Part shown: positions 955 through 60,304 of the stretch, piece by piece | Numbering within the stretch: the stretch's first letter is position 1 | How the letters are laid out: each line of letters starts with the position of its first letter | NCBI GenBank assembly: GCA_018920305.1 | Contig: JAHLMO010000001.1 | Location: 11,473 to 75,472 of the forward strand | Source: Candidatus Aenigmatarchaeota archaeon | Lineage (GTDB): Archaea > Aenigmatarchaeota > Aenigmatarchaeia > CG10238-14 > SpSt-28 | Length of the DNA stretch: 64,000 nt | Direction: 5' to 3' | Notes under the pieces: model-generated | Databases searched by the model: none | Told to the model about the DNA's origin: nothing | Seen by the model: the letters and a program-made list of their open reading frames with translations, nothing else | Position numbers and translations under genes: made by a program

Positions 955-2001
955 ATGAAATTTATTATAGTCAGTAGATTAGAAAAAATTAAAAATATTG
1001 ATATTGTTATAAAAGTTTTTAACAAATTAAAAGACGATGAACTCTGGATAGTAGGAAAAGGAAAATATGAAAACGAATTAAAAAAACTAGCTAAAGCAAA
1101 AAATATAAAATTTTTTGGCTTCGTTGATGAAAAAACACTAAAAAAATTGTATAAAGAAGCAGATGTATGTATAATGCCACATATTAATGAACCTTTTGGA
1201 TTAGTTCCATATGAAATAGCAAAATTTGGTAAACCAAGTATTATTAGTAAATTAAGTGGAATCGCGGAATTAGCAAAAGAATATAAATTTGGACTAATTT
1301 TTGATCCTTATGATGAAAATGATTTATTAGAAAAAATTAAAACTATAAAAATTAAGAAGATTTATAGACAACTAAGTAAAAATGCCAATAATCTTAAAAA
1401 ATATATTAATCCCAATACCGAATTTAAAAAATTTTTAGAACACATACCAAAAAATACTAAAAGAATTCTAATAATTCATTCTCAGTTCATTGAAATTGGT
1501 GGAGCAGAAAAATCAATAATAGGAATGTACGAAAAACTTAAAAGAATTTATAATTGTGAAATCTATTTTGAAATAGATAAGAATTATAAAAAATGGAAAA
1601 TTTTATATAAATCGAAAATAAGGAAAATTACGTATATCTTTAGAATTTTTAATTCATTAAGCAATTTAATTAAAAAATTTAAAAATAATGATATAGTAAT
1701 TGTTTCACTAACTGGAAATATTTTATCTATACCAGCATATTGGTCAAGTCTAATTCTTGGTAATCTCATTAATAAAAAAATTATTATTTACTTACATGAA
1801 ATACCGATAAGTTTTCGATCTCTCACAAAAATCGAAAAAATTCTACTATTTCCAATAATTTTCTTAGACATTTTATTAACAAAAGTTTTAATTCAAAATA
1901 ATTATATAATAATAGCAAATTCTAAGTTTTTAAGAAAACATTTCATAAAGAGGTATAAAAAAACTGTAAAAGACATTATATATCCAATTTTTCACTTATA
2001 A
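955..2001 (+). CDS. GT-B (GT4-like) glycosyltransferase with its domains in an unusual order
   Basis: Residues 1-140 carry the GT4 C-terminal Rossmann-domain motifs (SRLxxxK..., FFGFVDEKTLKKLYKEADVCIMPHINEPFGLVPYEIAKFGKPSI). Residues about 160-348 look like a GT4 N-terminal domain (ILIIHSQFIEIGGAEK...). The domain order is the reverse of canonical. Confidence 0.55.
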   Translation: MKFIIVSRLEKIKNIDIVIKVFNKLKDDELWIVGKGKYENELKKLAKAKNIKFFGFVDEKTLKKLYKEADVCIMPHINEPFGLVPYEIAKFGKPSIISKLSGIAELAKEYKFGLIFDPYDENDLLEKIKTIKIKKIYRQLSKNANNLKKYINPNTEFKKFLEHIPKNTKRILIIHSQFIEIGGAEKSIIGMYEKLKRIYNCEIYFEIDKNYKKWKILYKSKIRKITYIFRIFNSLSNLIKKFKNNDIVIVSLTGNILSIPAYWSSLILGNLINKKIIIYLHEIPISFRSLTKIEKILLFPIIFLDILLTKVLIQNNYIIIANSKFLRKHFIKRYKKTVKDIIYPIFHL

Positions 2002-3448: not shown

Positions 3449-3480
3449 AAACTATTTCATTTAAACTTTAAATAATTATG

Positions 3481-3595
3481 CGGGGGTCGCCTAGCCTGGG
3501 CAAGGGCGGCGGGCTCAAGATAGAATTGAGCTTTGAATAATGATAAGAAACCCGCTGGCTTAGTGCCTTCGTGGGTTCAAATCCCACCCCCCGCA
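3481..3595 (+). tRNA. tRNA-Leu(CAA) with an intron of about 30 nt in the anticodon loop
   Basis: A GC-rich island in AT-rich DNA. It has the acceptor pair GCGGGGG/CCCCCGC, the anticodon stem GCGGG/CCCGC with loop CTCAAGA, and a 30-nt insert at the canonical 37/38 position. The long variable arm TGGCTTAGTGCCTTC is of the class II Leu type, and the T-arm is GTGGG-TTCAAAT-CCCAC. Confidence 0.85.
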
Positions 3596-5819: not shown

Positions 5820-6736
5820 TTGTTTTTTAAATACTCTAATTTAATTTTTCCAATTTTTTCATATTTTGATGTATCATCAAAAATTAATTTGAAGTTCCAG
5901 ATATTTTCTATATTTTTATCAGTTATTACAAATTCAACTCCTAAATTCTCTATTATATAAAATTTTTCTATTTGATTTGATACAATAGCGAAATTATTTA
6001 TATATTGCTTAATAATTTTTAGGAAATCTTCATTAATTTCTTCTATCTTTAAATATGGAATTTCATTATCTTCTAACTTTAATTTCAAAATTTCTATAAC
6101 AGTTTTTAAAGCTTCGTTTTCTATTTCTAATTTTCTATCTCTTACTTCTCTAAATTCAATTATCTTTCTTTCTATTATTCTTTTATTTTTTAATTCTTCA
6201 ATCAAATCTTTTAATTTTTTGTTTTCTTCTTTTAGAATTTTTATTTTTTCTACTAATCTTTTAACATCTGTTGAATTGTAACTTTTGTAATTTTTTATAA
6301 GCTCTTTATTATCTTTATCTTTATTTGAATCATTTTTTTCGATTAAATTTTTTGTCTCAACTTTTTTATTCAATAATTTTTTTCTTAAAAATTTCATAGC
6401 TACTATTGCTGAAAATATTGCATCTCTTTCATGCCAATTATTATAAGAATAATTCGATGTTAACTTTTGTTTTTTGCTTTCTCTTACATTTTCTTTAGGA
6501 TGAAAAACTTTAACTCCTAAAGACTTTGAAATTTTTATTATTTTTTTTGGAACTTTAGCTACATCACAAGAAATTAATAAAGGCTTTCCAAATTTTATTA
6601 TATCATCTATCATTTCACTTATTTTATATTCTTTTTTACTTTTTAAAAATAATACATTAAGATTTTTATCTAAAATACAAATTGCAGAAGTTGTACCGAT
6701 ATCAATACCTACAACTATTTCATTCTGAATATTCAT
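5783..6736 (-). CDS. RNase H-like fold protein (DUF460/COG2433-type) with a long C-terminal coiled coil
   Basis: The N-terminus IVVGIDIGTTSAICILD is an RNase H-like or YqgF-like start. The C-terminal 120 aa form a heptad-repeat coiled coil (KILKEENKKLKDLIEELKNK...). Confidence 0.4.
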   Translation of the reverse strand: MNIQNEIVVGIDIGTTSAICILDKNLNVLFLKSKKEYKISEMIDDIIKFGKPLLISCDVAKVPKKIIKISKSLGVKVFHPKENVRESKKQKLTSNYSYNNWHERDAIFSAIVAMKFLRKKLLNKKVETKNLIEKNDSNKDKDNKELIKNYKSYNSTDVKRLVEKIKILKEENKKLKDLIEELKNKRIIERKIIEFREVRDRKLEIENEALKTVIEILKLKLEDNEIPYLKIEEINEDFLKIIKQYINNFAIVSNQIEKFYIIENLGVEFVITDKNIENIWNFKLIFDDTSKYEKIGKIKLEYLKNKWKEKLLSILKY

Positions 6737-7364
6737 AATTTATTATTTTTAAGAATTTTTTAGCTCTCTTTTCGCCTAAAATATCTACTAACTTATGTTT
6801 CTCTGCATTAATAAAATTTTTTATTGATTTAAACTTTTTTAAAATTTTTTCTGCTGTTTTATATGAAACTCCAGGAAAATTAATTAAAATTGAAATTATT
6901 AATTTTTTCATTTCTTCTTGATTTTTCTTAATTTTTCTTTTAGCTTTAGGTAAAACTATAAAATCTGAGGAATATTTTTTACATATTTTTATTAATAATT
7001 TTGCAGTTTCGTAAATGTTTTCTGTAAATATTACTGAAATATTTGTAGATGCTAAAATTTTGCTTAAAATTCCATAAAAAATCTCTTTTTTATCCTCCTC
7101 TATATAACTTCCTTCTAATATTAAAATATACTTTTTAAATTCGTTTTTATTTTCTATTTGCTCGAAAATTCTTTTATCAAATGTCGAATTTAAAAAATCT
7201 TTGTATGTTTTTCTTTCAATTGCAATATCCCCTATTATAAAATCAACATTTAAATTTTCTTCAATTACATTTATTTCTTTTTCATTTTTTAAAATTTCAA
7301 TTATTTCTTTCTCTCTATAATCTGCGATTATTATTGGTTTTTGAACTAATAATTTTTGTATCAT
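6720..7364 (-). CDS. hef: Hef/XPF-family ERCC4 nuclease domain plus HhH2, encoded as a separate ORF
   Basis: The ERCC4 motifs ADYREKE and GDIAIERKTYKDF are present, and the C-terminal HhH region reads ...FPGVSYKTAEKILKKF. Its start codon overlaps the stop of the upstream helicase ORF (TAATG). Confidence 0.8.
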   Translation of the reverse strand: MIQKLLVQKPIIIADYREKEIIEILKNEKEINVIEENLNVDFIIGDIAIERKTYKDFLNSTFDKRIFEQIENKNEFKKYILILEGSYIEEDKKEIFYGILSKILASTNISVIFTENIYETAKLLIKICKKYSSDFIVLPKAKRKIKKNQEEMKKLIISILINFPGVSYKTAEKILKKFKSIKNFINAEKHKLVDILGEKRAKKFLKIINYEYSE

Positions 7365-14070: not shown

Positions 14071-14267
14071 TAGATAAAGAACTATTAGATATCTTAGCTT
14101 GTCCAAAATGTAAAGGAGATTTAGAATTAAAAGAAATGTTTTTAGTATGTTATAATTGCAAGTTGGCTTTTCCTATTTTAGACGATGTCCCAGATTTACT
14201 ATTAGAAGATGCCTGGAAATTAGAAGATGCCGAAAAAAACAACTTTAAACACCAACTTCATTTATGA
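14067..14267 (+). CDS. Trm112/UPF0434-family small zinc-ribbon protein
   Basis: [14 protein letters not shown]...[18 protein letters not shown] matches the Trm112-like fold. The ATG overlaps the rfcS stop (ATGA). Confidence 0.65.
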
Positions 14268-15039
14268 TTTTTTTATATAAATTTTTTGCTTTTTCATAAC
14301 TTTTCATATCGTTAATTGGTAACCAAATATCGTGTGAAACAAATAGACTATATAATTTTCTTTCTTTTGATAATTTAGGTAATATTATATCTTCAAATTC
14401 TATTGATTTTAGTTCATTTAAATCGATATATTCATCTATCAAATCTATTACTTCTTTTTCTAGTAAATACATTCCTATAGATACAAAAACATTCATTAAT
14501 GGTTTTTCAATAAAATCTATAATAAAGTTATTTTCTACTTTTGCAACCCCAAAAGGAAATTCAAAACCATTAGTTAATACAATTGTTCCTAAGATATCAT
14601 ATCTTTTTCTAACTTCTAAATGAGTTAATAATAATTTAATTGGTAAGAAATTATCTAATTTTAAATCATCTGGAAAAGATATTATAATTCTTTCTCTTTT
14701 CAAAATTCCTACTTCATATGCATATTTTAATGCTTTTCCTTTTCCCCAATTACTTGTTTTAGGATCTATGCAAATTTCATAATTTATTTTATCTCTATAG
14801 TTTCTTTTTTCTAAATGATCTATTATTTGATCTGCATATTTTCCAAGCAAAAATATGAAATTCCTAAATCCGCAACTAAAATATAAATCAATTTCTTTAT
14901 CTAAGAGTGTATAATTTTCAGAAAGTTCTAATAAAGCTTTAGGCATATCTATATTCATTCTTTTTCCGCTTCCACCAGCTAAAATTACTACTTTTGTATC
15001 TCTAATTTCTTTCTCAATTTCTTTAAAAACATTACTCAT
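14245..15039 (-). CDS. Sugar-phosphate nucleotidyltransferase (NTP_transferase family)
   Basis: The N-terminal VVILAGGSGKRM...PKALL signature is that of NDP-sugar pyrophosphorylases. Confidence 0.7.
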   Translation of the reverse strand: MSNVFKEIEKEIRDTKVVILAGGSGKRMNIDMPKALLELSENYTLLDKEIDLYFSCGFRNFIFLLGKYADQIIDHLEKRNYRDKINYEICIDPKTSNWGKGKALKYAYEVGILKRERIIISFPDDLKLDNFLPIKLLLTHLEVRKRYDILGTIVLTNGFEFPFGVAKVENNFIIDFIEKPLMNVFVSIGMYLLEKEVIDLIDEYIDLNELKSIEFEDIILPKLSKERKLYSLFVSHDIWLPINDMKSYEKAKNLYKKIINEVGV

Positions 15040-23666: not shown

Positions 23667-23751
23667 GGGCCGGTAGCTTAGCGGAAAAGCGCCGCCTTCG
23701 CATTTAAAAAGAAAAAGGCGGAGACCCCGGGTTCGAATCCCGGCCGGTCCA
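23667..23751 (+). tRNA. tRNA-Ala(CGC) with an intron of about 13 nt
   Basis: The acceptor GGGCCGG/CCGGTCC carries the G3:U70 alanine identity pair. The anticodon stem CCGCC/GGCGG has the loop TTCGCAT, and a 13-nt A-rich insert sits at position 37/38. The T-arm is CCGGG-TTCGAAT-CCCGG. Confidence 0.85.
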
Positions 23752-26148: not shown

Positions 26149-26955
26149 TTAAATCAAAATTGAAAAAACTACATAGCCAATTAGCATAAGAACAATTGAA
26201 TATCTTAATCCTGGAATTATGCTTCCTTCACTCATTTTTCCTATTAACATACCACTAAAGAAACTTTGAATTAAAATTAAGTGTATTAGAATTTCTTTAA
26301 TTTCTTGGATATTTATTGCAAGTTGCTGAGATTGTTGAACTGCTGGAAGTAAAAATTTTACTAAAATTATCATTATTATTAAAAACATGAAATAAATCAT
26401 AAAACCATTTATTTTTGTTGGTGCTGATATCATTTCTCTTTCTCTTCTTACTTTTTCTGTTTCTATAATACTTCTTATAACCGCTTCTATTGTTGTATTT
26501 ACATCTCCACCTGCTTTTAAAGCTTCTCCAATAGTTATACTAATTTTTTTGATTAATTTAGATTCACTTCTTCTAGCTAAATTATTCAAAGCTTTATCAA
26601 AAGGTATTCCGAGTTTTACTTCAGAATACATTTTTTTAATTAGAGGTGAAAGAGATTTATAATCAAAATCTTTTAAATTTTCCAGTGAAGATATTATACT
26701 TCTTCCACTTCTAATATTTTCCGATAAATCTCTTAAAAAAATTGAAAAGAAAAATTCCATTTCCTTTCTTTTTCTATGTTTTTCATTAAAAATCAAAAAT
26801 ATACCTATTAATGGAATAAAGATTGCTAAAACATTTAAAGAAGTTTGAATAACTATATTTTTGAATATTTTAGAGAGAAGAAAATTGTTTAGAAAAAATA
26901 TAAATATTCCTAAAAAAATTAATATAAGTATTGTTAAAATTTCTTCGAGCTTCAT
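26149..26955 (-). CDS. FlaJ/TadC-like pilus-assembly membrane protein (T2SS-F domain), half 2
   Basis: Polytopic membrane protein with a T2SSF-like cytoplasmic loop. It overlaps the upstream FlaJ-half ORF by 4 nt (ATGA). Confidence 0.65.
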   Translation of the reverse strand: MKLEEILTILILIFLGIFIFFLNNFLLSKIFKNIVIQTSLNVLAIFIPLIGIFLIFNEKHRKRKEMEFFFSIFLRDLSENIRSGRSIISSLENLKDFDYKSLSPLIKKMYSEVKLGIPFDKALNNLARRSESKLIKKISITIGEALKAGGDVNTTIEAVIRSIIETEKVRREREMISAPTKINGFMIYFMFLIIMIILVKFLLPAVQQSQQLAINIQEIKEILIHLILIQSFFSGMLIGKMSEGSIIPGLRYSIVLMLIGYVVFSILI

Positions 26956-27809
26956 ATTTCAACTTCGATAGTCTTTATTATCATTAAAAAAATTATGTTT
27001 AAAAATGGTAATATTATATATGAAAAAATTTTTAACAAGTCCATTAAAGAAATAAAACCAATATTTGCTTGAATTGCTGCCATAACAACGATTATAGAAA
27101 CTAGAAGAAGTGGTGCAGATATTACTAAACCTACATATATTTCACTTATCGTACCTAATTTTTGTAAAAAATCTTCTCTCTTTATTTTCCAGTCAAACAT
27201 TAGATAATCATAAGTTACTTTTAAATAATTTTTCAAATCCCCACCACTTTCAATTATAGATGCTATATTGTTTAAAAATTTCTGAAACAATAAAGAACAA
27301 GAAGTTGAAGCAACTCTTCGTATTGCAGAAATAAAATCTTCCCCATAAACTTCTACTCTAGTAATTATTTCTTTAAATTCTTTAGAAATTGCTCCATACT
27401 CATCCTCAAATTTAGAAATTATTTTAAAAATTAGATAAGGATTAATATTACTTTCTGCTAAAGAAATCATGTGAGAAACTAATGGTATAAAATTTGACTC
27501 TATTTGAAATTTATATGAACTCTCTTTTTGGAATATATTAAAATAAAATGTCAAAAATGTAATAATAGGCAAAACAATTGGAAATAAAAATTTTATTATT
27601 AACAAATTGTCAGGAAGAGAAATGGGTATAAAAAGAAATATTATACCTATTATTAAGGATAAGAAAACAAAGAAAAAAATTCTAGCCAAATAAACAGAAT
27701 ATAGCGTTTTTGATCTTGTAGCTATTAAGGCTTTTCTTATTCTTAAAAAAAATGGAAATTTTTTTGTTCTTTCTACCAACCAAGAAAATAGTTGATATTC
27801 AAAACTCAT
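26952..27809 (-). CDS. FlaJ/TadB-like pilus-assembly membrane protein (T2SS-F domain), half 1
   Basis: Polytopic membrane protein lying directly downstream of the FlaI ATPase. Archaeal FlaJ is usually one protein of about 550 aa carrying two such domains. Confidence 0.6.
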   Translation of the reverse strand: MSFEYQLFSWLVERTKKFPFFLRIRKALIATRSKTLYSVYLARIFFFVFLSLIIGIIFLFIPISLPDNLLIIKFLFPIVLPIITFLTFYFNIFQKESSYKFQIESNFIPLVSHMISLAESNINPYLIFKIISKFEDEYGAISKEFKEIITRVEVYGEDFISAIRRVASTSCSLLFQKFLNNIASIIESGGDLKNYLKVTYDYLMFDWKIKREDFLQKLGTISEIYVGLVISAPLLLVSIIVVMAAIQANIGFISLMDLLKIFSYIILPFLNIIFLMIIKTIEVEI

Positions 27810-27815
27810 AAATAA

Positions 27816-29420
27816 TTAACTTTCAATTACAAAAATATAACCTAATTCTTTAGCAAGCAAATTTTCCCTTAATTTTAGAATTATTTTTTTTGCTTCTTCG
27901 TATTCTATTTTTTCCTCAATGATTTTCATTAAAAAGTTTTTATCCCTATAATATAATTTTATAATTTCTACAACTTCTTCATAAGTTCTTTTTCCACTTT
28001 TAAGAAGCCATTCTAAAACTTTTTTTCTATTCTCTATTTCTTTTTTTGCAGTTTCCAAAGATAATCCAAACTTTTCACATATCCTTGAAATTAATATGCT
28101 TTCATTAACTTTTTCTAAAATATCTTCAAATGGATTCCATCTAAATACAATATTTTGCATTATATTTCCTTTTTCATCAAGACCAACAATTTCTATTATT
28201 TCTTGAACTCTTCTTGCAAATTCTCCCTTTTCTCTTACTCTTCTCATCACTATTACTAAATCTAATGCTTCTAATAAACTTACTGGTAACTCTATTGGTG
28301 GAGAAATTAGTCTTTTTACTAGCGATGTTACATCTTCTGCATGAAATGTTGATGCGCTTGCATGTCCAGAAGCCATACCTTGAAACATTACATAAACTTC
28401 TTTTCCTCGCGTTTCTCCAACAATAACATAATCTGGATTCATTCTAAGACTTTCTCTTAATAAATCGAATAAATTTACTTCTCCATATTTTGATCCTGTA
28501 GGTAAAGGTAAACCAAAACCTGTTCTAGTAACCAAAGGAACCCAATGTTCATGCATAAATCTTAATTCCCTAGTATCTTCTATGCTAACTATTTTTGCTT
28601 CTGGCTTAATAAAAATTCCAAGGCTGTTTAATAAGCTTGTTTTTCCACTTCCTACTCCACCAATAATTAAAAAAGAAATTTTATGTTCGATCAAAAACCA
28701 AAGATAAGCTAAAGCTTCTATGTTTATCGTTTTTAATTCTACTAATTCAATTGGAGAGAAAGGTTTTTCGGTAAATTTTCTTATAGTAAAGGAAGGTCCT
28801 CTTTGGGAAACTTCTTCGCTAAATGTTGCACTAACTCTAGAACCATCTGGTAAAGAACCTTCTAATAGTGGTTCTGCATAAGATACATGTCTTCCACATC
28901 TTTGAGCTAATTTTATAATAAATTCTTTTAATTCATCGACATCATTAAAAATTATATTAGTTCTTATGTTCCCAAAATATCTATGTGTTACATAAATTGG
29001 AATATTTATTCCGCTACAGCTTATATCTTCAATATATGGATCATTCATTAGAGGTTCTATCTTACCTAATCCTATAAAATCCCTAGAAATATAATAAGAA
29101 ATCTTCAATAAGCTTTCGCTATCAATTTTAACTTTTAATATTTTTAAAACTTTTTTAATTGCGTCTTCTAATAACTTATTTAATTTTTCCCTATCTTTAA
29201 TAGCTATTATATTAACATCTAAGTATTCTAGTATAAGTTCTTTTATCTTTTCTAACTGTTTTTTTTCATTATCACTTAATTGTGGCTCAATTACTTCATA
29301 AACTATTGACTTTAAATTTCTATCATAAAAAATATGAGCATATGCAAAAGATTTTATTAATTCATAAGAAATATTTAGATCTTCTAATTTTTCCGGAATT
29401 CTTATTTCCTTTTCATTCAT
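27816..29420 (-). CDS. FlaI/VirB11/GspE-family secretion ATPase (archaeal type IV pilus/archaellum assembly ATPase)
   Basis: Walker A is LIIGGVGSGKTS. The Asp/His boxes (MRNPDYVIVGETRG, GHASASTFHA) are typical of FlaI/TadA. Confidence 0.85.
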   Translation of the reverse strand: MNEKEIRIPEKLEDLNISYELIKSFAYAHIFYDRNLKSIVYEVIEPQLSDNEKKQLEKIKELILEYLDVNIIAIKDREKLNKLLEDAIKKVLKILKVKIDSESLLKISYYISRDFIGLGKIEPLMNDPYIEDISCSGINIPIYVTHRYFGNIRTNIIFNDVDELKEFIIKLAQRCGRHVSYAEPLLEGSLPDGSRVSATFSEEVSQRGPSFTIRKFTEKPFSPIELVELKTINIEALAYLWFLIEHKISFLIIGGVGSGKTSLLNSLGIFIKPEAKIVSIEDTRELRFMHEHWVPLVTRTGFGLPLPTGSKYGEVNLFDLLRESLRMNPDYVIVGETRGKEVYVMFQGMASGHASASTFHAEDVTSLVKRLISPPIELPVSLLEALDLVIVMRRVREKGEFARRVQEIIEIVGLDEKGNIMQNIVFRWNPFEDILEKVNESILISRICEKFGLSLETAKKEIENRKKVLEWLLKSGKRTYEEVVEIIKLYYRDKNFLMKIIEEKIEYEEAKKIILKLRENLLAKELGYIFVIES

Positions 29421-48902: not shown

Positions 48903-51900
48903 ATGAGAAGAAAAGAAATTTTTTTAACTTTTTTATTTTTTACGATATTTATATATAGTTTATCGTTGTCTTTTTCTCAATCCTGGCTTTCTGATTGGCA
49001 ATATAGAATTCCAATAACAATAACAGAAAGAAGTGGAAATACTTTAACAGATTACCAAGTTTTAGTAGTAATTAATACACAAAATTTAATTTCTCAAGGA
49101 AAAATGAGAAGTGATTGTGGAGATATTAGATTTACCGATAGTGATGGAAGAACTTTACTAAATTATTGGATTGAAAGTGGATGTAATACGAATAATACAA
49201 GAATTTGGGTTAAAGTTCCAAATATTCCCGCTAGATCAAATAAAACAATTTATTTGTACTATGGAAATCCAAATGCTACAAGTTTAAGTAATATTTCTTC
49301 AGTATTTATTTGGACACAAAGAGAAATATTTCCAAACATTCCTAATTCAACATGGGGATCTGGATCATCTAATCCAGAAGATACATTCAACACGTACTAT
49401 CATGATGCAAGAAATGAAATATTAATTAGAGCTTCTGATTTTGGAAGAGATATAGCTCCAGTAAACATAACTGCATTAAGAATTTATGTAGTTCAACAGC
49501 CAGGAAGAGATTTAGATAATTATAGAGTAAGATATCAATTAACTACTAGAAATCAACTTACAAACAACTTTACAACTACTGGATGGATTTTAGTTTTTGG
49601 ACCTACTAATTTAGGAAGACCATCAGCAGGATCTGTAGTTACTTTAAATTTAAATCCACAAATAATTTGGACGAATCATTCTTTAAATTTATTGTTAGAT
49701 TTATCCAGAGATACAAATTCATATGTTGCTGGAGGGGGAATGTATAGAAAACTTGTAAATATTCCTAATACAATGTGTACTTTTTGGAGTGATTCTGGCA
49801 GAGTTTGGCCTTTTGATGGTACTTGTAATTTAAGAAACTATGTGCCAAGCATAATATTTGTCGGATGGTTTAGAAAATATATTTCTCCAGAACCAACAAT
49901 TTCTTTAGGAAATGAAGAATATCAAAGAAATCTAAATCCAATATGGATAAGATATGCATCTAATACTTCTTACGCTATAATTAATCAGCCTATACTATTC
50001 TCAAGTCTGTGGAATGCATCCCAAATTCAATCTAATTTATCTTTATCGCACTATATTTTTTCATATAAAATAGGAGATTCGCAATGGATCAATGAAACCT
50101 ACAGATTTAGTTCTGCTCCTCAAAATTGGCTTTCTGATTGGCAATATAGAATTCCAATAACAATAACAGAAAGAAGTGGAAATACTTTAACAGATTACCA
50201 AGTTTTAGTAGTAATTAATACACGAAACCTAATTTCTCAAGGCAAAATGAGAAATGATTGTGGAGATATAAGATTTACCGATAGTGATGGAAGAACTTTA
50301 TTAAATTATTGGATTGAAAGAGGATGTAATTCTGCTAATACAAGAATTTGGGTTAAAGTACCGAATATTCCTGCTAATTCAAATAAAACAATTTATTTGT
50401 ATTATGGAAATCCCAGTGCTACAAGTTTGAGCAATATTTCTAGAGTATTTGTTTGGGCCGAAAGAGAAATATTTCCAAACATTCCTAATTCAACATGGGG
50501 ATCTGGATCATCTAATCCAGAAGATACATTCAACACGTACTATCATGATGCAAGAAATGAAATATTAATTAGAGCTTCTGATTTCGGAAGAGATATAGCT
50601 CCAGTAAACATAACTGCATTAAGAATTTATGTAGTTCAACAGCCAGGAAGAGATTTAGATAATTATAGAGTAAGATATCAATTAACTACTAGAAATCAAC
50701 TTACAAACAACTTTACAACTTCCGGCTGGATTTTAGTTTTTGGACCTACTAATTTAGGAAGACCATCAGCAGGATCTGTAGTTACTTTAAATTTAAATCC
50801 ACAAATAATTTGGACAAATCATTCTTTAAATTTATTGTTAGATTTATCTAGAGATACATTTTCATGGGTTTCTGGAGGGGGAATGTATAGAAAACTTGTA
50901 AATATTCCTAATACAATGTGTACTTTTTGGAGTGATTCTGGCAGAGTTTGGCCTTTTGATGGTACTTGTAATTTAAGAAACTATGTGCCAAGCATAATAT
51001 TTGTCGGATGGTTTAGAAAATATATTTCTCCAGAACCAACAATTTCTTTAGGAAATGAAGAAACAAATTTACCTTTTACGGCATGGGCAAATGTTACAAA
51101 AAGCTTTTCTCAAGCTGGAAATTTATGTTGGAGATTTTATGTAAATAATTCTCTTGGTCTGTGGAACTCAACGCCGATAGATTGTAGTATTAATATAATT
51201 CCTCCCGAATTTTCACTAGAAGTTAAATTAGTCCAACCAAATGAAAATTCTATAAATAATCTAACTGTTGGAGAATCTTTAAATATAAGAGCTCATGTAA
51301 AATTGAAATCTCAATACAATTTCTGTATAGATGTAAATGCATATTTAAGATATAATGCTTCATCAAGCATGCCAGATTCTTTCGTTCCAACTTCCGCTAA
51401 TTCAATAATGTCAAATGTTAATCCTATATCTTTTAATTTATGTACAAATCAAGAAATTCCAATAAATTTTACAATATATGCAAATAAACCAAGTTTTAAA
51501 GTTTTAGATGTAAATTTTTGTGCTCTAAATATCTGCAACGATACATCAGACTTTTATGTTAATATCTCTATAGTTGCAACGAGAGACTTTAAATTAAGGA
51601 AAGGTTGGAACTTAATTTCGATACCACATAAGTTTATATATTTTGATTTAAGTAATGATGATTGTAATATAAGGGAAAAAATATTTCATCATTATAATGC
51701 ATCCTCAAATTCTTGGACATATTTTACTTATGATAAATTACTTCCAGGTATTTCATATTGGGTTTATAGCGAAAAGGATTGTACCTCTAAAATTGCAGTA
51801 AGTGGAACAGTTAATTTAAGCGATTTGCCAAAAGCTATAAAAGGAAGAAAAAATTTTATTGGTTCTTTAACTTCTTTAACAAACTTAAATCAAGTTGCAC

Positions 51901-52013
51901 AATATATTGGATGTAATAATCCTATACTTAGATATTGGGATACTTCTACTAACTCTTTTAGACAATCTACAATTTTAGAACCTTGGAAAGGTTATATACT
52001 CGAATGTAGTTAA
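48903..52013 (+). CDS. Large secreted/surface protein of about 1040 aa with two near-identical tandem beta-sandwich repeats (DUF2341-like WxYRxPITI...IWVKVP...IYLYYGN motif)
   Basis: The N-terminal signal peptide is MRRKEIFLTFLFFTIFIYSLSLSFS. There are many N-x-S/T sequons and Cys pairs. Two repeat units of about 312 aa are roughly 95% identical. The track ORF starts at 48882 and overlaps the rfcL end, so the Met at 48903 was preferred. Confidence 0.75.
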   Translation: MRRKEIFLTFLFFTIFIYSLSLSFSQSWLSDWQYRIPITITERSGNTLTDYQVLVVINTQNLISQGKMRSDCGDIRFTDSDGRTLLNYWIESGCNTNNTRIWVKVPNIPARSNKTIYLYYGNPNATSLSNISSVFIWTQREIFPNIPNSTWGSGSSNPEDTFNTYYHDARNEILIRASDFGRDIAPVNITALRIYVVQQPGRDLDNYRVRYQLTTRNQLTNNFTTTGWILVFGPTNLGRPSAGSVVTLNLNPQIIWTNHSLNLLLDLSRDTNSYVAGGGMYRKLVNIPNTMCTFWSDSGRVWPFDGTCNLRNYVPSIIFVGWFRKYISPEPTISLGNEEYQRNLNPIWIRYASNTSYAIINQPILFSSLWNASQIQSNLSLSHYIFSYKIGDSQWINETYRFSSAPQNWLSDWQYRIPITITERSGNTLTDYQVLVVINTRNLISQGKMRNDCGDIRFTDSDGRTLLNYWIERGCNSANTRIWVKVPNIPANSNKTIYLYYGNPSATSLSNISRVFVWAEREIFPNIPNSTWGSGSSNPEDTFNTYYHDARNEILIRASDFGRDIAPVNITALRIYVVQQPGRDLDNYRVRYQLTTRNQLTNNFTTSGWILVFGPTNLGRPSAGSVVTLNLNPQIIWTNHSLNLLLDLSRDTFSWVSGGGMYRKLVNIPNTMCTFWSDSGRVWPFDGTCNLRNYVPSIIFVGWFRKYISPEPTISLGNEETNLPFTAWANVTKSFSQAGNLCWRFYVNNSLGLWNSTPIDCSINIIPPEFSLEVKLVQPNENSINNLTVGESLNIRAHVKLKSQYNFCIDVNAYLRYNASSSMPDSFVPTSANSIMSNVNPISFNLCTNQEIPINFTIYANKPSFKVLDVNFCALNICNDTSDFYVNISIVATRDFKLRKGWNLISIPHKFIYFDLSNDDCNIREKIFHHYNASSNSWTYFTYDKLLPGISYWVYSEKDCTSKIAVSGTVNLSDLPKAIKGRKNFIGSLTSLTNLNQVAQYIGCNNPILRYWDTSTNSFRQSTILEPWKGYILECS
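48984..49920 (+). repeat. Tandem intragenic direct repeat, unit 1 (about 937 nt)
   Basis: It is nearly identical at the nucleotide level to 50127-51063, with an offset of 1143 nt. The second half of the unit is essentially 100% identical. Confidence 0.85.
50127..51063 (+). repeat. Tandem intragenic direct repeat, unit 2 (about 937 nt)
   Basis: It is the copy of 48984-49920. The two units are separated by a spacer of about 206 nt that has diverged from the corresponding sequence after unit 2. Confidence 0.85.
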
Positions 52014-56747: not shown

Positions 56748-57515
56748 TTAAATTAGCCAAGAAAACCAGCTTCTTACTCTTTTTAGATACGTTGTAAATG
56801 GTACTTTATAATCTTCTCCAGCTAAATAAGCAGCTAATTTCATAAATTCTATTGCTGCTTTGCTGTAATCATTAATTTCTAAATATGTTTTACCCAAAGC
56901 TAATGCTTTTTCAAAATCTGCATCAAAAGGTATTGCAGCAATTACTGGCAAATTAGTTAATTCTTCTATTTCTCCAATAGTCAATTCATGTACTCTTCCT
57001 GTAACTTTATTGACTACAACACCAAGTGGTCTTAATCCTAATTTTTCTGCTACTTCATTTATTTTAATTACATCTGTCACTGCAGCTATGTTTGGATTGG
57101 TAACATATAATATTTCTTTCGAAGCTTTCATAGCACTTACAGCTTCTCTTCCGATTCCAGGTGCACTATCTATTAATACAAAATCGCTATAAGGAATTTC
57201 TTTTATTACTTTTTCTAACTTTGCGATATCTACATTTTGTAATTCGTTCACATCTAAAGAGCTTGGAATTATCTTTAAACCACTATCGTGAAAATATATT
57301 GCATCTATTACTGTTTTTGTTTCTTCTCTCAATACATGATTTAAAGTTGTTGGATTATAAAACATTCCAAAATTCATTGCTAAATGTGGAGTAGTTATAT
57401 TAGCATCTATTATAGTAACGCTTTTTCCTAACTTAGTCAAAGCTAAACCAAGATTTGATGTTACTGTTGTTTTACCTACACCGCCTTTTCCACTAGCTAC
57501 TGTTATTATTCTCAT
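56748..57515 (-). CDS. minD: MinD/ParA-family P-loop ATPase
   Basis: The deviant Walker A is ITVASGKGGVGKTT. The MinD-like switch regions are present, and the length is 255 aa. Confidence 0.85.
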   Translation of the reverse strand: MRIITVASGKGGVGKTTVTSNLGLALTKLGKSVTIIDANITTPHLAMNFGMFYNPTTLNHVLREETKTVIDAIYFHDSGLKIIPSSLDVNELQNVDIAKLEKVIKEIPYSDFVLIDSAPGIGREAVSAMKASKEILYVTNPNIAAVTDVIKINEVAEKLGLRPLGVVVNKVTGRVHELTIGEIEELTNLPVIAAIPFDADFEKALALGKTYLEINDYSKAAIEFMKLAAYLAGEDYKVPFTTYLKRVRSWFSWLI

Positions 57516-57544
57516 AAATATTTATTATATTCTAATTATTTATA

Positions 57545-58360
57545 TTAATCTTTATTAGCCCTTCTAGATAATTTAGACAGCTCTTCTTCTATTATTTTTC
57601 TAGAATTTTCTATAAGATTTTCAGAAATATCATATACATAATTTTTTTTAATTAATTTACAAATTTTTTCGCTAATTTTTTCATCTATAACTAGCTTAGG
57701 AAAGTTTTTAAAATCTTTAACAGTTAAAATTGGTTTATTTAATAAAGCCGCATAAAGCAATTCTCTATAAAACTTATTTTTAGAAAAGTCAATAACAATA
57801 TCAACATATTTTAATAACTTTATTAATTCTTTTTTTTCCAATTTTCTTTTTAAGAAATAAATTCCTTTGGAATTTGATGTATTTAAATCTAAAATTCCAT
57901 AAATATAAATTTCAAATTCTTTCGATAAAAGTGTTATTACTCCAACAACCTCTAAAGAAATTTTGTCACATAAAATCAATACAACTTTTCTATTTTTATT
58001 TTCAAAAATTTTTTCTATTTTAACTCTAGGAATATTATTGTTGATGACATATGGAAAGTAGATAACATTATCAAAGAAGCTTCTTTCAATCCTATAAACA
58101 TACATCTTCTCTCTATCGATTAAACTTAGTTCATCAATTTTGTTTATAACTTTTTCTAAATCTAATTTTAAATCAGAAAGATTTAAAATAAAATCTAATT
58201 CTTTATAATACTTTTCTAATTCACTGAACGGCAATAAAAAAATATTGTAATATCTTCTTCTCTCTTCTGAATCAAAAAGAAAATAGTAAAATTCGAAATT
58301 TAAAAATTTTAAAGCTTCAATTAAATCTATATCGTATTCATCTATTATTCCTATCTTCAT
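57545..58360 (-). CDS. Reduced GT-B-fold glycosyltransferase-like protein, paralog A2
   Basis: The C-terminal GT-B Rossmann pattern is IYFLKRKLEKKELIKLLKYVDIVIDFSKNKFYRELLYAALLNKPILTV (cf. F.G.L..EEL..LY..ADVFV.PS..E.FG...LEAMA.G.PVI). It shares blocks with 58987-59838 (MKIG..., NxIYFPYxI). Confidence 0.45.
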   Translation of the reverse strand: MKIGIIDEYDIDLIEALKFLNFEFYYFLFDSEERRRYYNIFLLPFSELEKYYKELDFILNLSDLKLDLEKVINKIDELSLIDREKMYVYRIERSFFDNVIYFPYVINNNIPRVKIEKIFENKNRKVVLILCDKISLEVVGVITLLSKEFEIYIYGILDLNTSNSKGIYFLKRKLEKKELIKLLKYVDIVIDFSKNKFYRELLYAALLNKPILTVKDFKNFPKLVIDEKISEKICKLIKKNYVYDISENLIENSRKIIEEELSKLSRRANKD

Positions 58361-58369
58361 AAATTAAAA

Positions 58370-58639
58370 TCATTCCCAAGAAATAAAACCTAACTCTGTA
58401 AGTTCCTTAAAAATTTCATCCAAAACTTTTTTAATCATTTCCTTATCCATTTGAGTTTTTTCGGATAGAAGTTCTAATATTTCTTCATACTTTTTTTTAC
58501 CATCACAATATTTTAATAGACCGACAGCAATAGGATCTATTTGATATAACTTTTCTTTATCAATAGTAACATAGTAAGTATTTAAATAATTAATTATAGT
58601 AAGATTTTCATTTTTTTTAGGCCTTTTTCCTTCAAACAT
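58370..58639 (-). CDS. PqqD-family / RiPP-recognition-element-like small protein of 89 aa
   Basis: LTIINYLNTYYVTIDKEKLYQIDPIAVGLLKYCDGKKKYEEILELLSEKTQMDKEMIKKVLDEIFKELTELGFI matches the PqqD consensus skeleton (L.N.T...W.L.DG.....EI...L...Y.VD.E....DV..FL..L...GLI). Confidence 0.5.
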   Translation of the reverse strand: MFEGKRPKKNENLTIINYLNTYYVTIDKEKLYQIDPIAVGLLKYCDGKKKYEEILELLSEKTQMDKEMIKKVLDEIFKELTELGFISWE

Positions 58640-58640
58640 T

Positions 58641-58922
58641 TCACTTTCCTAATCTTTTTCTTAACTCTTCTAATATCTCTTCATCTGTAACTTTTTGTGC
58701 AAATTTCTGCTTTAAATAACATAATTTTGCCTTCCCTACTTTTCTTTGATATATTATTTCTGCTCCTAATAATTCGTGTAAATATTTTGCTACAGTTATT
58801 CTGCTATATCCTAGCTTATCTGAAATTTGCTGTATTGTTAAACCTTCTGGATGTTTTCTTAACAAATCTATTATTAATTTTCTAGCATCTTCTTTTTTCT
58901 TTTTTTCCTCTTTTTCTTCCAT
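58641..58922 (-). CDS. Winged-helix transcriptional regulator
   Basis: The HTH is LTIQQISDKLGYSRITVAKYLHELLGAEIIYQRKVGKAKLCY. The N-terminus is a basic K/E stretch, and the stop is 1 nt from the PqqD-like start. Confidence 0.65.
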   Translation of the reverse strand: MEEKEEKKKKEDARKLIIDLLRKHPEGLTIQQISDKLGYSRITVAKYLHELLGAEIIYQRKVGKAKLCYLKQKFAQKVTDEEILEELRKRLGK

Positions 58923-58986
58923 AATATTAAGATAATAAAAAATATTTATATTTATTGTTTAACTTATTTGTTAACTAATTATTTTA

Positions 58987-59838
58987 TTAAATTCTTAATT
59001 TTATTTCTATTAATTCTCTTAACTCCTTTTCAAAAATTTTTGCAGAATTTCTATAATCGTATTCTTTTGCAATTAACTGATTTGCTTCATATTCTTCAAA
59101 GTTCAATAATCTCTGAATTTTAGCTAAAAAGTTTCCAAAATTTATATTTGGAGTACCTAAAAAACCATCATTAGTAATAACTATTTTTTTCATAGCCATT
59201 GCTTCTAATACTTCTTTCTTTTTATTTTCAATTGCAATTATTAAATTACTATTCAAATATAATTCTGCTCTCTCCTTTTTACTTAACTCTCTACTAATGA
59301 AAGTAATAAACGGATAAACTTTATCTGAAGTTGCTTGATACACGATAAAATTTAAATTTTTAATTAATTTTTTCAATTCTAAGATTTTTTCCAAGAATGA
59401 AACCAAGCCAGTATCAAAAGAATTCGCTAATATCGTAATTCTATTAATCTTATCAAATTTTTTAAATTTAGATTTAAAGTTACTGAAAAATTCAAAATCA
59501 ATAAAATATGGAAAATAAATACAATTTTCTACTTTTTTATTTCTAATCGCATAAAATTCGTAATCAAAAACGTATCTTTCTAATTCATTTTCCACAATTT
59601 TTACATTAACAGCATAATTGCTCTTAAAATTTATATTTTTATCTATAAAAAGGATTTTAACGTCTTCTTGTCTAATTGCGCTTTCAAAATTTAAGGTTTT
59701 TATTATTTTTATATTGTTTTCTGAAAAATATTCTCCAGATTCTTTACTTTTTTCAAATATTATGATTTCATATTTAATTAGACTTAAAAATTTTATTATG
59801 TCTTCATCTACTTTATCTAAAAGAAATCCTATTTTCAT
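58987..59838 (-). CDS. Reduced GT-B-fold glycosyltransferase-like protein, paralog A1
   Basis: The GT-B C-domain block ...ERAELYLNSNLIIAIENKKKEVLEAMAMKKIVITND contains the EAMA motif. It aligns with paralog A2 from the internal Met MKIGFLL..., so the start was set there (the track ORF extends to 59892). Confidence 0.45.
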   Translation of the reverse strand: MKIGFLLDKVDEDIIKFLSLIKYEIIIFEKSKESGEYFSENNIKIIKTLNFESAIRQEDVKILFIDKNINFKSNYAVNVKIVENELERYVFDYEFYAIRNKKVENCIYFPYFIDFEFFSNFKSKFKKFDKINRITILANSFDTGLVSFLEKILELKKLIKNLNFIVYQATSDKVYPFITFISRELSKKERAELYLNSNLIIAIENKKKEVLEAMAMKKIVITNDGFLGTPNINFGNFLAKIQRLLNFEEYEANQLIAKEYDYRNSAKIFEKELRELIEIKLRI

Positions 59839-60304
59839 AAAAATTAAATTGCTAACATCAATAATACTCTTAGTACTGATTTCTATTCTCACTTTTTTTA
59901 TAAAAGATAAATATTTATATGACGAATTAGATTACGAAATAAGATATGTTGCCTATGTTATAGATGGTGATACTTTTGTCGATAAGAATGGAGAAAGAGT
60001 AAGATTAATTGGAATTAACGCTCCTGAAATTGGTGAAAGATGTTATGAAGAAGCTAAAGCAAGATTAAAGGAGTTGATAGAAAAAAAGTATGTTAAATTG
60101 GTCTATGATGTTAAAAGGAAGGATAGATATAATAGAACTCTTGCATATGTTTTTGTTAACGATTTAAACGTTAATCTAATAATGATTAAAGAAGGTTATG
60201 CAGTTGTTTATCCAGATAGATTAAATACAAGGTTTTTAAATGAATTTTATTCTGCAGAAAAATATGCAAGAGAAAATAAAATTGGTTGTTTATGGAAAGA
60301 TTAA
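59798..60304 (+). CDS. Membrane-anchored staphylococcal-nuclease (SNase/thermonuclease) homolog
   Basis: The N-terminal TM anchor is LLTSIILLVLISILTFF. The SNase motifs are YVIDGDTF, RLIGINAPE and DRYNRTLAYVFV. The start is uncertain: ATG at 59798, or more likely TTG at 59851. Confidence 0.7.
   Translation: MSSSTLSKRNPIFIKIKLLTSIILLVLISILTFFIKDKYLYDELDYEIRYVAYVIDGDTFVDKNGERVRLIGINAPEIGERCYEEAKARLKELIEKKYVKLVYDVKRKDRYNRTLAYVFVNDLNVNLIMIKEGYAVVYPDRLNTRFLNEFYSAEKYARENKIGCLWKD

Follow-up and report, generated by a model that had tools for sequence, protein, structure and literature searches.

We describe here a cluster of five minus-strand genes in a 64,000-nt stretch of a Candidatus Aenigmatarchaeota genome (contig JAHLMO010000001.1; hereafter the window, in whose positions all coordinates are given), encoding two compact proteins of the glycosyltransferase (GT)-B fold (A1 and A2), a winged helix-turn-helix (wHTH) protein, a discrete PqqD-like protein with the fold of a recognition element (RRE) of ribosomally synthesized and posttranslationally modified peptide (RiPP) pathways, and a MinD ATPase. 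The wHTH, RRE-fold and MinD genes keep an invariant order in all five arrangements of the cluster recovered from related genomes, and we tentatively read the cluster as a lineage-restricted, MinD-centered module in which the coupled winged-helix pair would act as partners or adaptors of MinD and the GT-B proteins as its clients or effectors, an interpretation that we favor without holding it to be probable. An initial annotation, made from the window sequence, had proposed the same five open reading frames (ORFs) and four fold assignments (PqqD/RRE, wHTH, MinD and GT-B); the ORFs all exist and the fold assignments all hold.

A slowly evolving gene trio with variable companions

Twenty-six loci were fetched through searches with the A proteins, with the PqqD-like protein and with sequence patterns, and duplicates were removed before arrangements were sorted. 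Conservation of the gene neighborhood, which the initial annotation had named as a check, was found in other genomes: the cluster genes recur together in at least 15 loci and in five arrangements, a co-occurrence greater than chance. The order A1-wHTH-RRE-A2-MinD is shared by the window and loci L011, L005, L009, L001, L003, L018 and L025; a single A gene precedes the trio in L007 and L021 (A-wHTH-RRE-MinD) or lies within it in L006 (wHTH-RRE-A-MinD), a distant A relative, A3, takes that internal place in L010, L016 and L023 (wHTH-RRE-A3-MinD), and L020 carries wHTH-RRE-MinD with no adjacent A gene and a divergent membrane-protein gene upstream. Readings of this upstream region of L020 as an RNA gene or an A pseudogene were rejected, as Rfam and tblastn searches returned nothing. 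An A-type gene is adjacent in 14 of the 15 loci with both flanks visible. Related loci were found only in metagenome-assembled genomes (MAGs) of DPANN archaea, almost all labelled Candidatus Aenigmatarchaeota, with one partial record labelled Nanopusillaceae.

The closest locus, L011 (JAWBAK010000001.1), encodes core proteins 97 to 98% identical to those of the window, and at the far end of the comparison identity to the window falls to 66 to 75% for the wHTH protein, 60 to 70% for the PqqD-like protein, 63 to 73% for MinD and 11 to 45% for the A proteins. The ratio of nonsynonymous to synonymous substitution rates (dN/dS) is 0.02 to 0.07 for the trio (0.02 to 0.05 for the wHTH gene, whose product is 66 to 98% identical across all variants) and 0.10 to 0.18 for A1/A2, i.e., 2 to 8 times higher, with all five genes under purifying selection. 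The wHTH stop and RRE start codons lie 0 to 14 nt apart or overlap by one base, and the two genes are start-stop coupled in nearly all loci. Because the wHTH, RRE-fold and MinD genes are slowly evolving, always contiguous and translationally coupled, we regard them as the putative functional core of the cluster; the pattern of rates and arrangements points to the GT-B proteins as frequent, fast-evolving companions that appear dispensable, as judged by adjacency.

The cluster sits amid housekeeping genes (topoisomerase VI [TopoVI], prolyl-tRNA synthetase [ProRS], RPA) in reduced genomes, and it is present in every related locus recovered. TopoVI adjoins it in most loci, an adjacency lost in L006, L010, L016, L020 and L023, and the flanking contexts vary among TopoVI, reverse gyrase, ProRS/metallophosphatase and a membrane protein. 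As these contexts differ, the linkage of the trio is not merely inherited synteny, a point that bears on the possibility that no joint machine exists and that a housekeeping MinD, an autoregulatory wHTH protein and unrelated RRE-fold and GT-B neighbors are held together by genome compaction and conserved synteny. The setting lends this some credence: the window is AT-rich (G+C content, ~25%) and ~96% coding, with short gaps everywhere, most loci come from close relatives that share the wider synteny TopoVI ... ProRS-TrkH-RPA, and the relatives share the narrow taxonomic labels given above. The packing of the cluster is itself not distinctive, since short same-strand gaps are common across the window. 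The initial annotation had correctly given the junction gaps as 64, 1, 9 and 29 nt, but its contrast with gaps of 2 to 24 nt elsewhere fails: the median of the other same-strand gaps in the window is 4 nt (range, -38 to 419), 86% of them are ≤29 nt, and the 64-nt gap that separates the wHTH gene from A1 falls in the top 11% by size. We nevertheless consider an assembly of unrelated neighbors improbable, because the trio stays contiguous and in the same order in at least four flanking contexts despite insertions and removals of A genes, its wHTH and RRE genes are coupled as described, and the evolutionary rates of its three members match.

Three further observations concern the flanks. A HEPN plus nucleotidyltransferase pair resembling an MNT-type toxin-antitoxin system lies between MinD and ProRS in one sublineage only (L001, 7640-8316; L002/L012, 2309-2985). 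The cluster-adjacent reverse gyrase of L010 (439-5574; 1,711 aa) carries an intein with a LAGLIDADG domain, and TopoVI-A of L009 (3278-4369) is called as two ORFs (181 and 178 aa), which suggests a frameshift or split gene.

The MinD ATPase

The ATPase of the cluster scores 234.2 bits against the archaeal MinD model TIGR01969 minD_arch (cutoff, 201.75), has the deviant Walker A motif GKGGVGKT at residues 9 to 16, and finds its closest relative in the PDB in A. fulgidus MinD-1 (1hyq; E = 1.5e-49), with Pyrococcus MinDs next and FleN structures also among its sequence matches (E ~1e-16). Its top Pfam name, PF10609, would suggest an Fe-S carrier (Mrp/NBP35/ApbC, NUBPL), a reading that we excluded because the protein has no cysteine at all and the CXXC motif is missing; the NCBIfam Mrp and ApbC models stay far under their cutoffs, and the ParA_partition model NF041546 reaches 59 against a cutoff of 180. 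All 11 orthologs have a cationic, aromatic C-terminal tail of moderate amphipathicity (hydrophobic moment, 0.42 to 0.52; net charge, +1 to +3); the tail keeps this character while its sequence changes and is a candidate membrane-targeting sequence by analogy with other MinD-like ATPases (10.1101/2020.04.03.021790; PMC11407121).

Membership in TIGR01969 and the deviant Walker A are shared with the archaeal MinDs of A. fulgidus, Pyrococcus (1g3q/1ion) and Haloferax volcanii (MinD2 and MinD4). The tail may be of like character to the C-terminal membrane-targeting sequence of Haloferax MinD4 (10.1101/2020.04.03.021790), and the operon of Haloferax minD2 with HVO_0596, a small protein of unknown role (PMC11588486), has its likeness in the small-protein neighbors of the cluster MinD. 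Those neighbors are, however, wHTH, RRE-fold and GT-B genes and not chemotaxis or archaellum genes, and the host belongs to DPANN. A 2020 survey of archaeal MinDs found homologs only in Euryarchaeota, and its text makes no mention of DPANN (10.1101/2020.04.03.021790); judged by the matches above, the DPANN MAGs of the window and of all related loci encode a bona fide archaeal-type MinD.

The RRE-fold protein and the wHTH protein

Both proposed checks of the 89-aa protein supported a PqqD/RRE assignment. It matches PF05402 over residues 23 to 86 with 31.3 bits (gathering cutoff, 23.4; E = 2.7e-7), and most orthologs carry a precomputed match to the same family; its AlphaFold2 model has a predicted local distance difference test score (pLDDT) of 92.7, and the top PDB matches of that model are RRE domains, RRE-leader complexes being the best, so that the protein has an RRE fold by both sequence and structure. 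The model shows an additional N-terminal strand (residues 7 to 9) and an additional C-terminal strand (residues 86 to 88), and the N-terminal sequence MFEGKxPxKN is invariant. A role as the PqqD of pyrroloquinoline quinone biosynthesis was rejected (TIGR03859, 20.7 bits against a cutoff of 46; no radical-SAM or pqq genes in the cluster), and the protein reaches the cutoff of none of the specific PqqD-type models in NCBIfam. The wHTH protein exceeds the cutoffs of HTH_23 (31.2 bits), HTH_IclR (28.3) and HTH_24 (27.0), resembles DNA-binding domains of the ArsR/SmtB, IclR, MarR and Csa3 types, and has a Lys-rich N terminus and a conserved C-terminal helix, EEILEELRKRL. Two other origins for these genes were considered and rejected: an antiphage defense system, as PADLOC gave only generic wHTH similarities (Csa3 HTH and others) and a weak P-loop match, and a plasmid or viral source of the small proteins, as relatives were not found on plasmids or viral contigs.

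In size (85 to 94 aa), in its three strands followed by three helices and in its top structural matches, the RRE-fold protein is like the known discrete RRE/PqqD proteins (the lasso-peptide B1 proteins TfuB1 and TbiB1, PqqD, and the PbtF RRE). It differs from them in having no precursor, radical-SAM, protease, cyclase or YcaO gene nearby, and in its link to MinD and its housekeeping chromosomal context. The short-ORF scan that had been suggested for precursor peptides detected none of ≥20 aa in the intergenic gaps of the window cluster, and no small ORF recurred in the gene lists and ORF scans of related loci. The precursor gene beside an RRE and a modifying enzyme that characterizes a RiPP biosynthetic gene cluster was not found at the window cluster, although a precursor may be encoded at another site. 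Candidate precursors in related loci were rejected, namely, a 53-aa ORF after MinD in L007, which is not conserved in other loci, and ORFs of 103 to 117 aa after MinD in L010 and L016, which are likewise not conserved and resemble fragments of diphthamide synthase. The housekeeping setting and the presence of the cluster in every related locus recovered are also unlike the sporadic distribution of RiPP clusters.

Compact GT-B-fold companions

The proposed paralogy of A1 and A2, marginal by BLASTP (E = 0.034), was confirmed by an hhalign comparison of the two families (97.8% probability, E = 8e-13, 257 columns), and the EAMA and MKIG/IYFPY motifs noted in the initial annotation are present. A GT-B superfamily fold was revealed by structure alone, and we extend it to A2 because A2 is a paralog of A1. 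Neither protein, searched singly or as a profile, matched any PDB sequence. Against 1.84 billion protein representatives a joint A1+A2 profile retrieved only the A family itself (5 representatives at 50% identity), and the family has no Pfam or NCBIfam match, which bears out the description of the cluster as uncharacterized. The Glycos_transf_1 model PF00534 matched none of A1, A2, P0014 and the L007 and L010 variants, and it reached only 14.3 bits with A3 of L016 (E = 0.03; cutoff, 26.4). As hhalign also found no similarity between the A family and the canonical GT4 (Glycos_transf_1) domain of the window, the statements on catalytic motifs that follow rest on manual placement, the EX7E and basic-pair positions having been assigned from sequence and secondary structure and not by superposition.

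Placed in this way, proteins of the A1 type, including the single copies of L006 and L007, have an invariant KKEVLEAM with EX7E-like spacing ((E/D)N.KKEVLEAM), as in EPFGLVPYE of the window GT4. The GRL..K basic pair is missing from A1, which reads ANSFDTG where the reference, the canonical GT4 of this genome, has SRLEKIK. Both acidic residues of EX7E are lacking in A2 (SKNKFYRELLYAAL), which has one invariant Lys at the GRL..K position, and in A3 (TQNVFDFVRAFS; NSSSPFDLVTAL), a distant A relative of 285 to 321 aa that matches the A profile over its C-domain only (hhalign, 80.7%, E = 1.3e-5) and is the only A-type protein in three lineages (L010, L016 and L023). Catalysis by A1 is possible on these grounds, A2 is likely a noncanonical or inactive glycosyltransferase, and A3 looks noncanonical or inactive as well; with a dN/dS of 0.12 to 0.18, A2 is not a pseudogene. 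Compared to GT-B enzymes of the GT4 type (PimA, sucrose-phosphate synthase, BshA and PglA-type enzymes) and to active/inactive GT-B pairs such as GtfA-GtfB, where 340 to 400 aa is typical, the A proteins are short (270 to 285 aa), lack the profile match and the hhalign similarity to the GT4 of their genome, and have an N-terminal domain without the Gly-rich loop, in addition to the missing basic pair of A1.

These features must be set against the mechanism that the initial annotation placed at the center of the cluster, namely, presentation of a peptide or protein by the RRE to two GT-B enzymes, with MinD as an accessory. In a version adapted to the present data, the RRE-fold protein would bind a recognition sequence of a peptide or protein encoded elsewhere and present it to a catalytic A1, with A2 or A3 as co-activator, the wHTH protein as regulator and MinD as membrane localizer; GtfB, a noncatalytic co-activator paralog of GtfA, is a precedent for such a pair. 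The robust RRE fold, with RRE-leader complexes as its best matches, agrees with this proposal, as do the adjacency of a GT-B gene in 14 of 15 informative loci despite rearrangements, the EX7E-spaced KKEVLEAM of the A1 type, a sugar-1-phosphate nucleotidylyltransferase gene in the window, and the recent report of fusions of RREs with glycosyltransferases, which so far are GT2 (PF00535) enzymes (PMC12710340). Even so, we consider RRE-guided glycosylation unlikely, and the mechanism as originally put forward is not supported: no precursor was found in the window gaps or recurrently in related loci, the EX7E residues are lost in A2 and in the A3 proteins that stand alone in three lineages, the basic pair found after the first C-domain strand of this genome's canonical GT4 is missing from A1, GT profiles and hhalign gave no match or similarity for the A family, L020 has no adjacent A gene, and the evolutionary rate of the RRE-fold protein follows those of MinD and the wHTH protein, not those of the A proteins.

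A further GT-related gene of the window is a 348-aa ORF (955-2001, plus strand) in which Glycos_transf_1 (105 bits) matches residues 3 to 145, i.e., the C-terminal Rossmann domain of a GT4 enzyme placed first, and an apparent GT4 N-terminal domain (KRILIIHSQFIEIGGAEKS) follows from about residue 170. Possible explanations are a circular permutation of a GT-B enzyme and a fusion of remnants from two tandem GT genes.

Locus layout and internal promoter-like element

The features of the cluster are listed in Table 1, with the start of A1 moved from a GTG at 59892 to the ATG at 59838 (MKIGFLL...), which matches all orthologs and A2 and is almost certainly the true start as judged from this agreement.

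TABLE 1 Features of the cluster in the window
Feature	Position	Strand	Remarks
A1, compact GT-B-fold protein, 283 aa (corrected start)	58987..59838	-	EX7E-like E204-x7-E212 inside ENKKKEVLEAMA
Intergenic region, 64 nt	58923..58986	-	Double GTTAAC-type box and BRE/TATA-like run
wHTH protein, 93 aa	58641..58922	-	DNA-binding regulator type; three HTH Pfam cutoffs passed
PqqD/RRE-fold protein, discrete, 89 aa	58370..58639	-	Starts 1 nt past wHTH stop codon
A2, 271 aa	57545..58360	-	A1 paralog; EX7E equivalents lost (SKNKFYRELLYAAL)
Archaeal MinD ATPase, 255 aa	56748..57515	-	TIGR01969
MinD C-terminal 14 residues	56751..56792	-	TYLKRVRSWFSWLI, candidate membrane-targeting sequence

The presence of a divergently oriented staphylococcal nuclease (SNase) gene was confirmed (PF00565, 70 bits). 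Its likely start, the ATG at 59798, which begins a signal-anchor-like N terminus, and that of A1 would place the two genes in a head-to-head overlap of ~41 nt (59798-59838), and gene callers reported the identical overlap in L005 (5547-6041 against 6001-6852). With such an overlap, the promoter of each gene would sit within the other gene.

In the gap that separates the wHTH gene from A1, a double GTTAAC-type box (58957-58975) is followed by a run resembling a B recognition element and TATA box (BRE/TATA-like; AATAAATATAAATAT, ~58942-58956) some 20 to 30 nt ahead of the wHTH ATG. All variants have such an arrangement, one or two boxes of the GTTAAC type and then a BRE/TATA-like element, 20 to 40 nt ahead of this ATG. 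The position of the element is kept: loci of the window type have it at -52 to -54, those of the A3 type have it at -64, and in L021 and L017 it lies at about -40. Two double boxes are present in the 64-kb window, where 0.15 would be expected, and single GTTAAC is not enriched there. We propose that the intergenic region is probably an internal promoter and operator. Because the element is retained in loci with A1 upstream, A1 probably forms a transcription unit of its own, followed by a four-gene operon, wHTH-RRE-A2-MinD; A1 is missing or relocated in other lineages. Of the claimed five-gene operon, the codirectional genes and the conserved order wHTH-PqqD-(A)-MinD hold, and the conserved promoter-like element probably sets A1 apart from the other four.

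The second double box of the window (GTTAAC-N8-GTTAA; 60155-60174, plus strand) lies within the SNase coding region, 1.2 kb from the box of the wHTH promoter, and the pair flanks A1. A similar sequence is found at the equivalent position in L011, L001 and L003, not in L005 and L009, and it may reflect only coding constraint (VNDLNVN). A sigma-70 promoter scan was uninformative in this AT-rich archaeal DNA (33 found in the window against 28 expected), and a terminator scan of the window found none.

A helix-turn-helix gene, a small adaptor gene and a Walker ATPase gene just downstream of a palindrome-containing site formally match the layout of the AspA-ParB-ParA cassette of Sulfolobus pNOB8 (and of SegAB), where a palindrome ahead of the cassette serves as the binding site of AspA, and ParB acts as the bridging adaptor (10.1101/2025.11.19.689047). 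By this analogy, the wHTH protein, which resembles DNA-binding regulators, would occupy the GTTAAC boxes as a centromere-like site, the RRE-fold protein would be the bridge, and a membrane-bound MinD would move or anchor the locus, with the GT-B genes as passengers; the TopoVI gene next to most copies of the cluster would suit such a DNA-positioning function. We regard this as quite improbable, since the ATPase is not a ParA but a MinD ortholog whose tail looks membrane-type, the adaptor has an RRE and not a ParB fold, there are one or two boxes and no array, and the small proteins have no relatives on plasmid or viral contigs. Moreover, the persistent adjacency of the embedded GT-B genes would go unexplained, and that of TopoVI is lost in the loci named above.

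A possible MinD-centered module

We therefore return to the MinD-centered module and outline how it might operate. The wHTH-RRE-(A2)-MinD operon would be transcribed from its own promoter, and the wHTH protein would bind the GTTAAC boxes and at least regulate its own synthesis. The wHTH and RRE-fold proteins would be produced at comparable levels and work together, with the latter clamping a short stretch of peptide in some partner through beta-strand addition, the way RREs bind leader peptides; the conserved wHTH tail, MinD or a GT-B protein are candidates for the clamped partner. MinD would dimerize with ATP on the membrane through its C-terminal amphipathic tail, and its ATPase could be stimulated by the N terminus, Lys-rich and invariant, of one of the two small proteins, as partner proteins of ParA/MinD ATPases generally do. 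The resulting cycle would position, recruit or gate peripheral GT-B proteins, with A1 possibly catalytic and A2 or A3 as noncatalytic paralogs. Alternatively, MinD may sequester the wHTH regulator, in the manner of FleN/FlhG with FleQ/FlrA. All of these interaction steps are inferred.

Several strands of published work are compatible with such a scheme. Each of the ParA/MinD (A/D) ATPases has a partner protein, which usually acts through its N-terminal region, and MinD-like ATPases bind the membrane by a C-terminal amphipathic helix, with FlhG/FleN also binding a transcription factor (PMC11407121). FleN/FlhG with FleQ/FlrA is likewise a MinD-family ATPase paired with a DNA-binding regulator and follows a partner-switching logic (PMC11407121), but the regulator of the cluster is a 93-aa wHTH protein and not an AAA+ enhancer-binding protein, flagellar or archaellar genes are lacking, and the RRE-fold protein has no counterpart. 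For archaeal MinDs, partners of the MinE or MinC type are unknown and the mechanism is unresolved (PMC11588486; 10.1101/2020.04.03.021790). Outside RiPP pathways, enzymes that act on protein substrates also make use of winged helices resembling RREs (PKMT, Rv2067c).

A narrower form of the proposal would make the RRE-fold protein and its cotranslated wHTH protein a dedicated partner of the archaeal MinD, an adaptor and/or ATPase activator that stands in for MinE or ParB, both of which to our knowledge are lacking in archaea, and couples membrane-bound MinD to GT-B cargo. We hold this narrower form to be rather doubtful.

Several observations count against the module as we propose it. The MinD tail has only a moderate hydrophobic moment, and it is not the top-scoring window of the protein in several orthologs. 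The N terminus of the RRE-fold protein is modelled as a high-confidence beta-strand and not as a flexible tail, which is typical of ATPase-activating peptides. An A-type gene adjacent in 14 of 15 loci makes the GT-B link strong enough that it could be the primary function. A wHTH gene in first position of an operon with an upstream palindrome fits a plain autoregulator as well. Finally, the comparison covers one narrow clade, as pattern-based scans did not reach distant relatives.

Other features of the window

Apart from the cluster, the window encodes a T2SSE-type ATPase and two T2SSF-type membrane proteins (26149-29420, minus strand), a set for type IV pilus or archaellum-like assembly, a 1,036-aa secreted DUF2341 protein (48903-52013, plus strand) and the above-mentioned sugar-1-phosphate nucleotidylyltransferase (14245-15039, minus strand). 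These envelope-related genes might have a connection with the target of the GT-B proteins. A sequence at 3480-3595 (plus strand) that matches tRNA in Rfam with 40.9 bits over 116 nt and is not called by ARAGORN is probably an intron-containing archaeal tRNA, and an 85-nt tRNA at 23667-23751, labelled Asn by ARAGORN with anticodon att, looks miscalled.

Conclusions

Each part of the cluster belongs to a known fold or family. We have not found the combination described, our searches returned no literature combining archaea, MinD and PqqD, and the partner set is unprecedented for a ParA/MinD-family cassette. The scope is a narrow clade of uncultured DPANN archaea, and the functional statements made here are all inferential. 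The A proteins appear to be a new minimal GT-B family of ~280 aa with one paralog apparently active and one inactive, and they are of interest for the minimal requirements of the GT-B fold. The 93-aa and 89-aa proteins, with clear domain assignments and one confident model, offer a compact candidate partner set for an archaeal MinD. The RRE fold has so far been treated as a marker of RiPP biosynthesis and used as such in genome mining. If the MinD-centered reading is true in its narrower form, the cluster would give a stand-alone RRE its first role in cell biology outside RiPP pathways and an archaeal MinD its first defined set of partners, and it would serve as a warning against calling every discrete PqqD-like gene a RiPP cluster.

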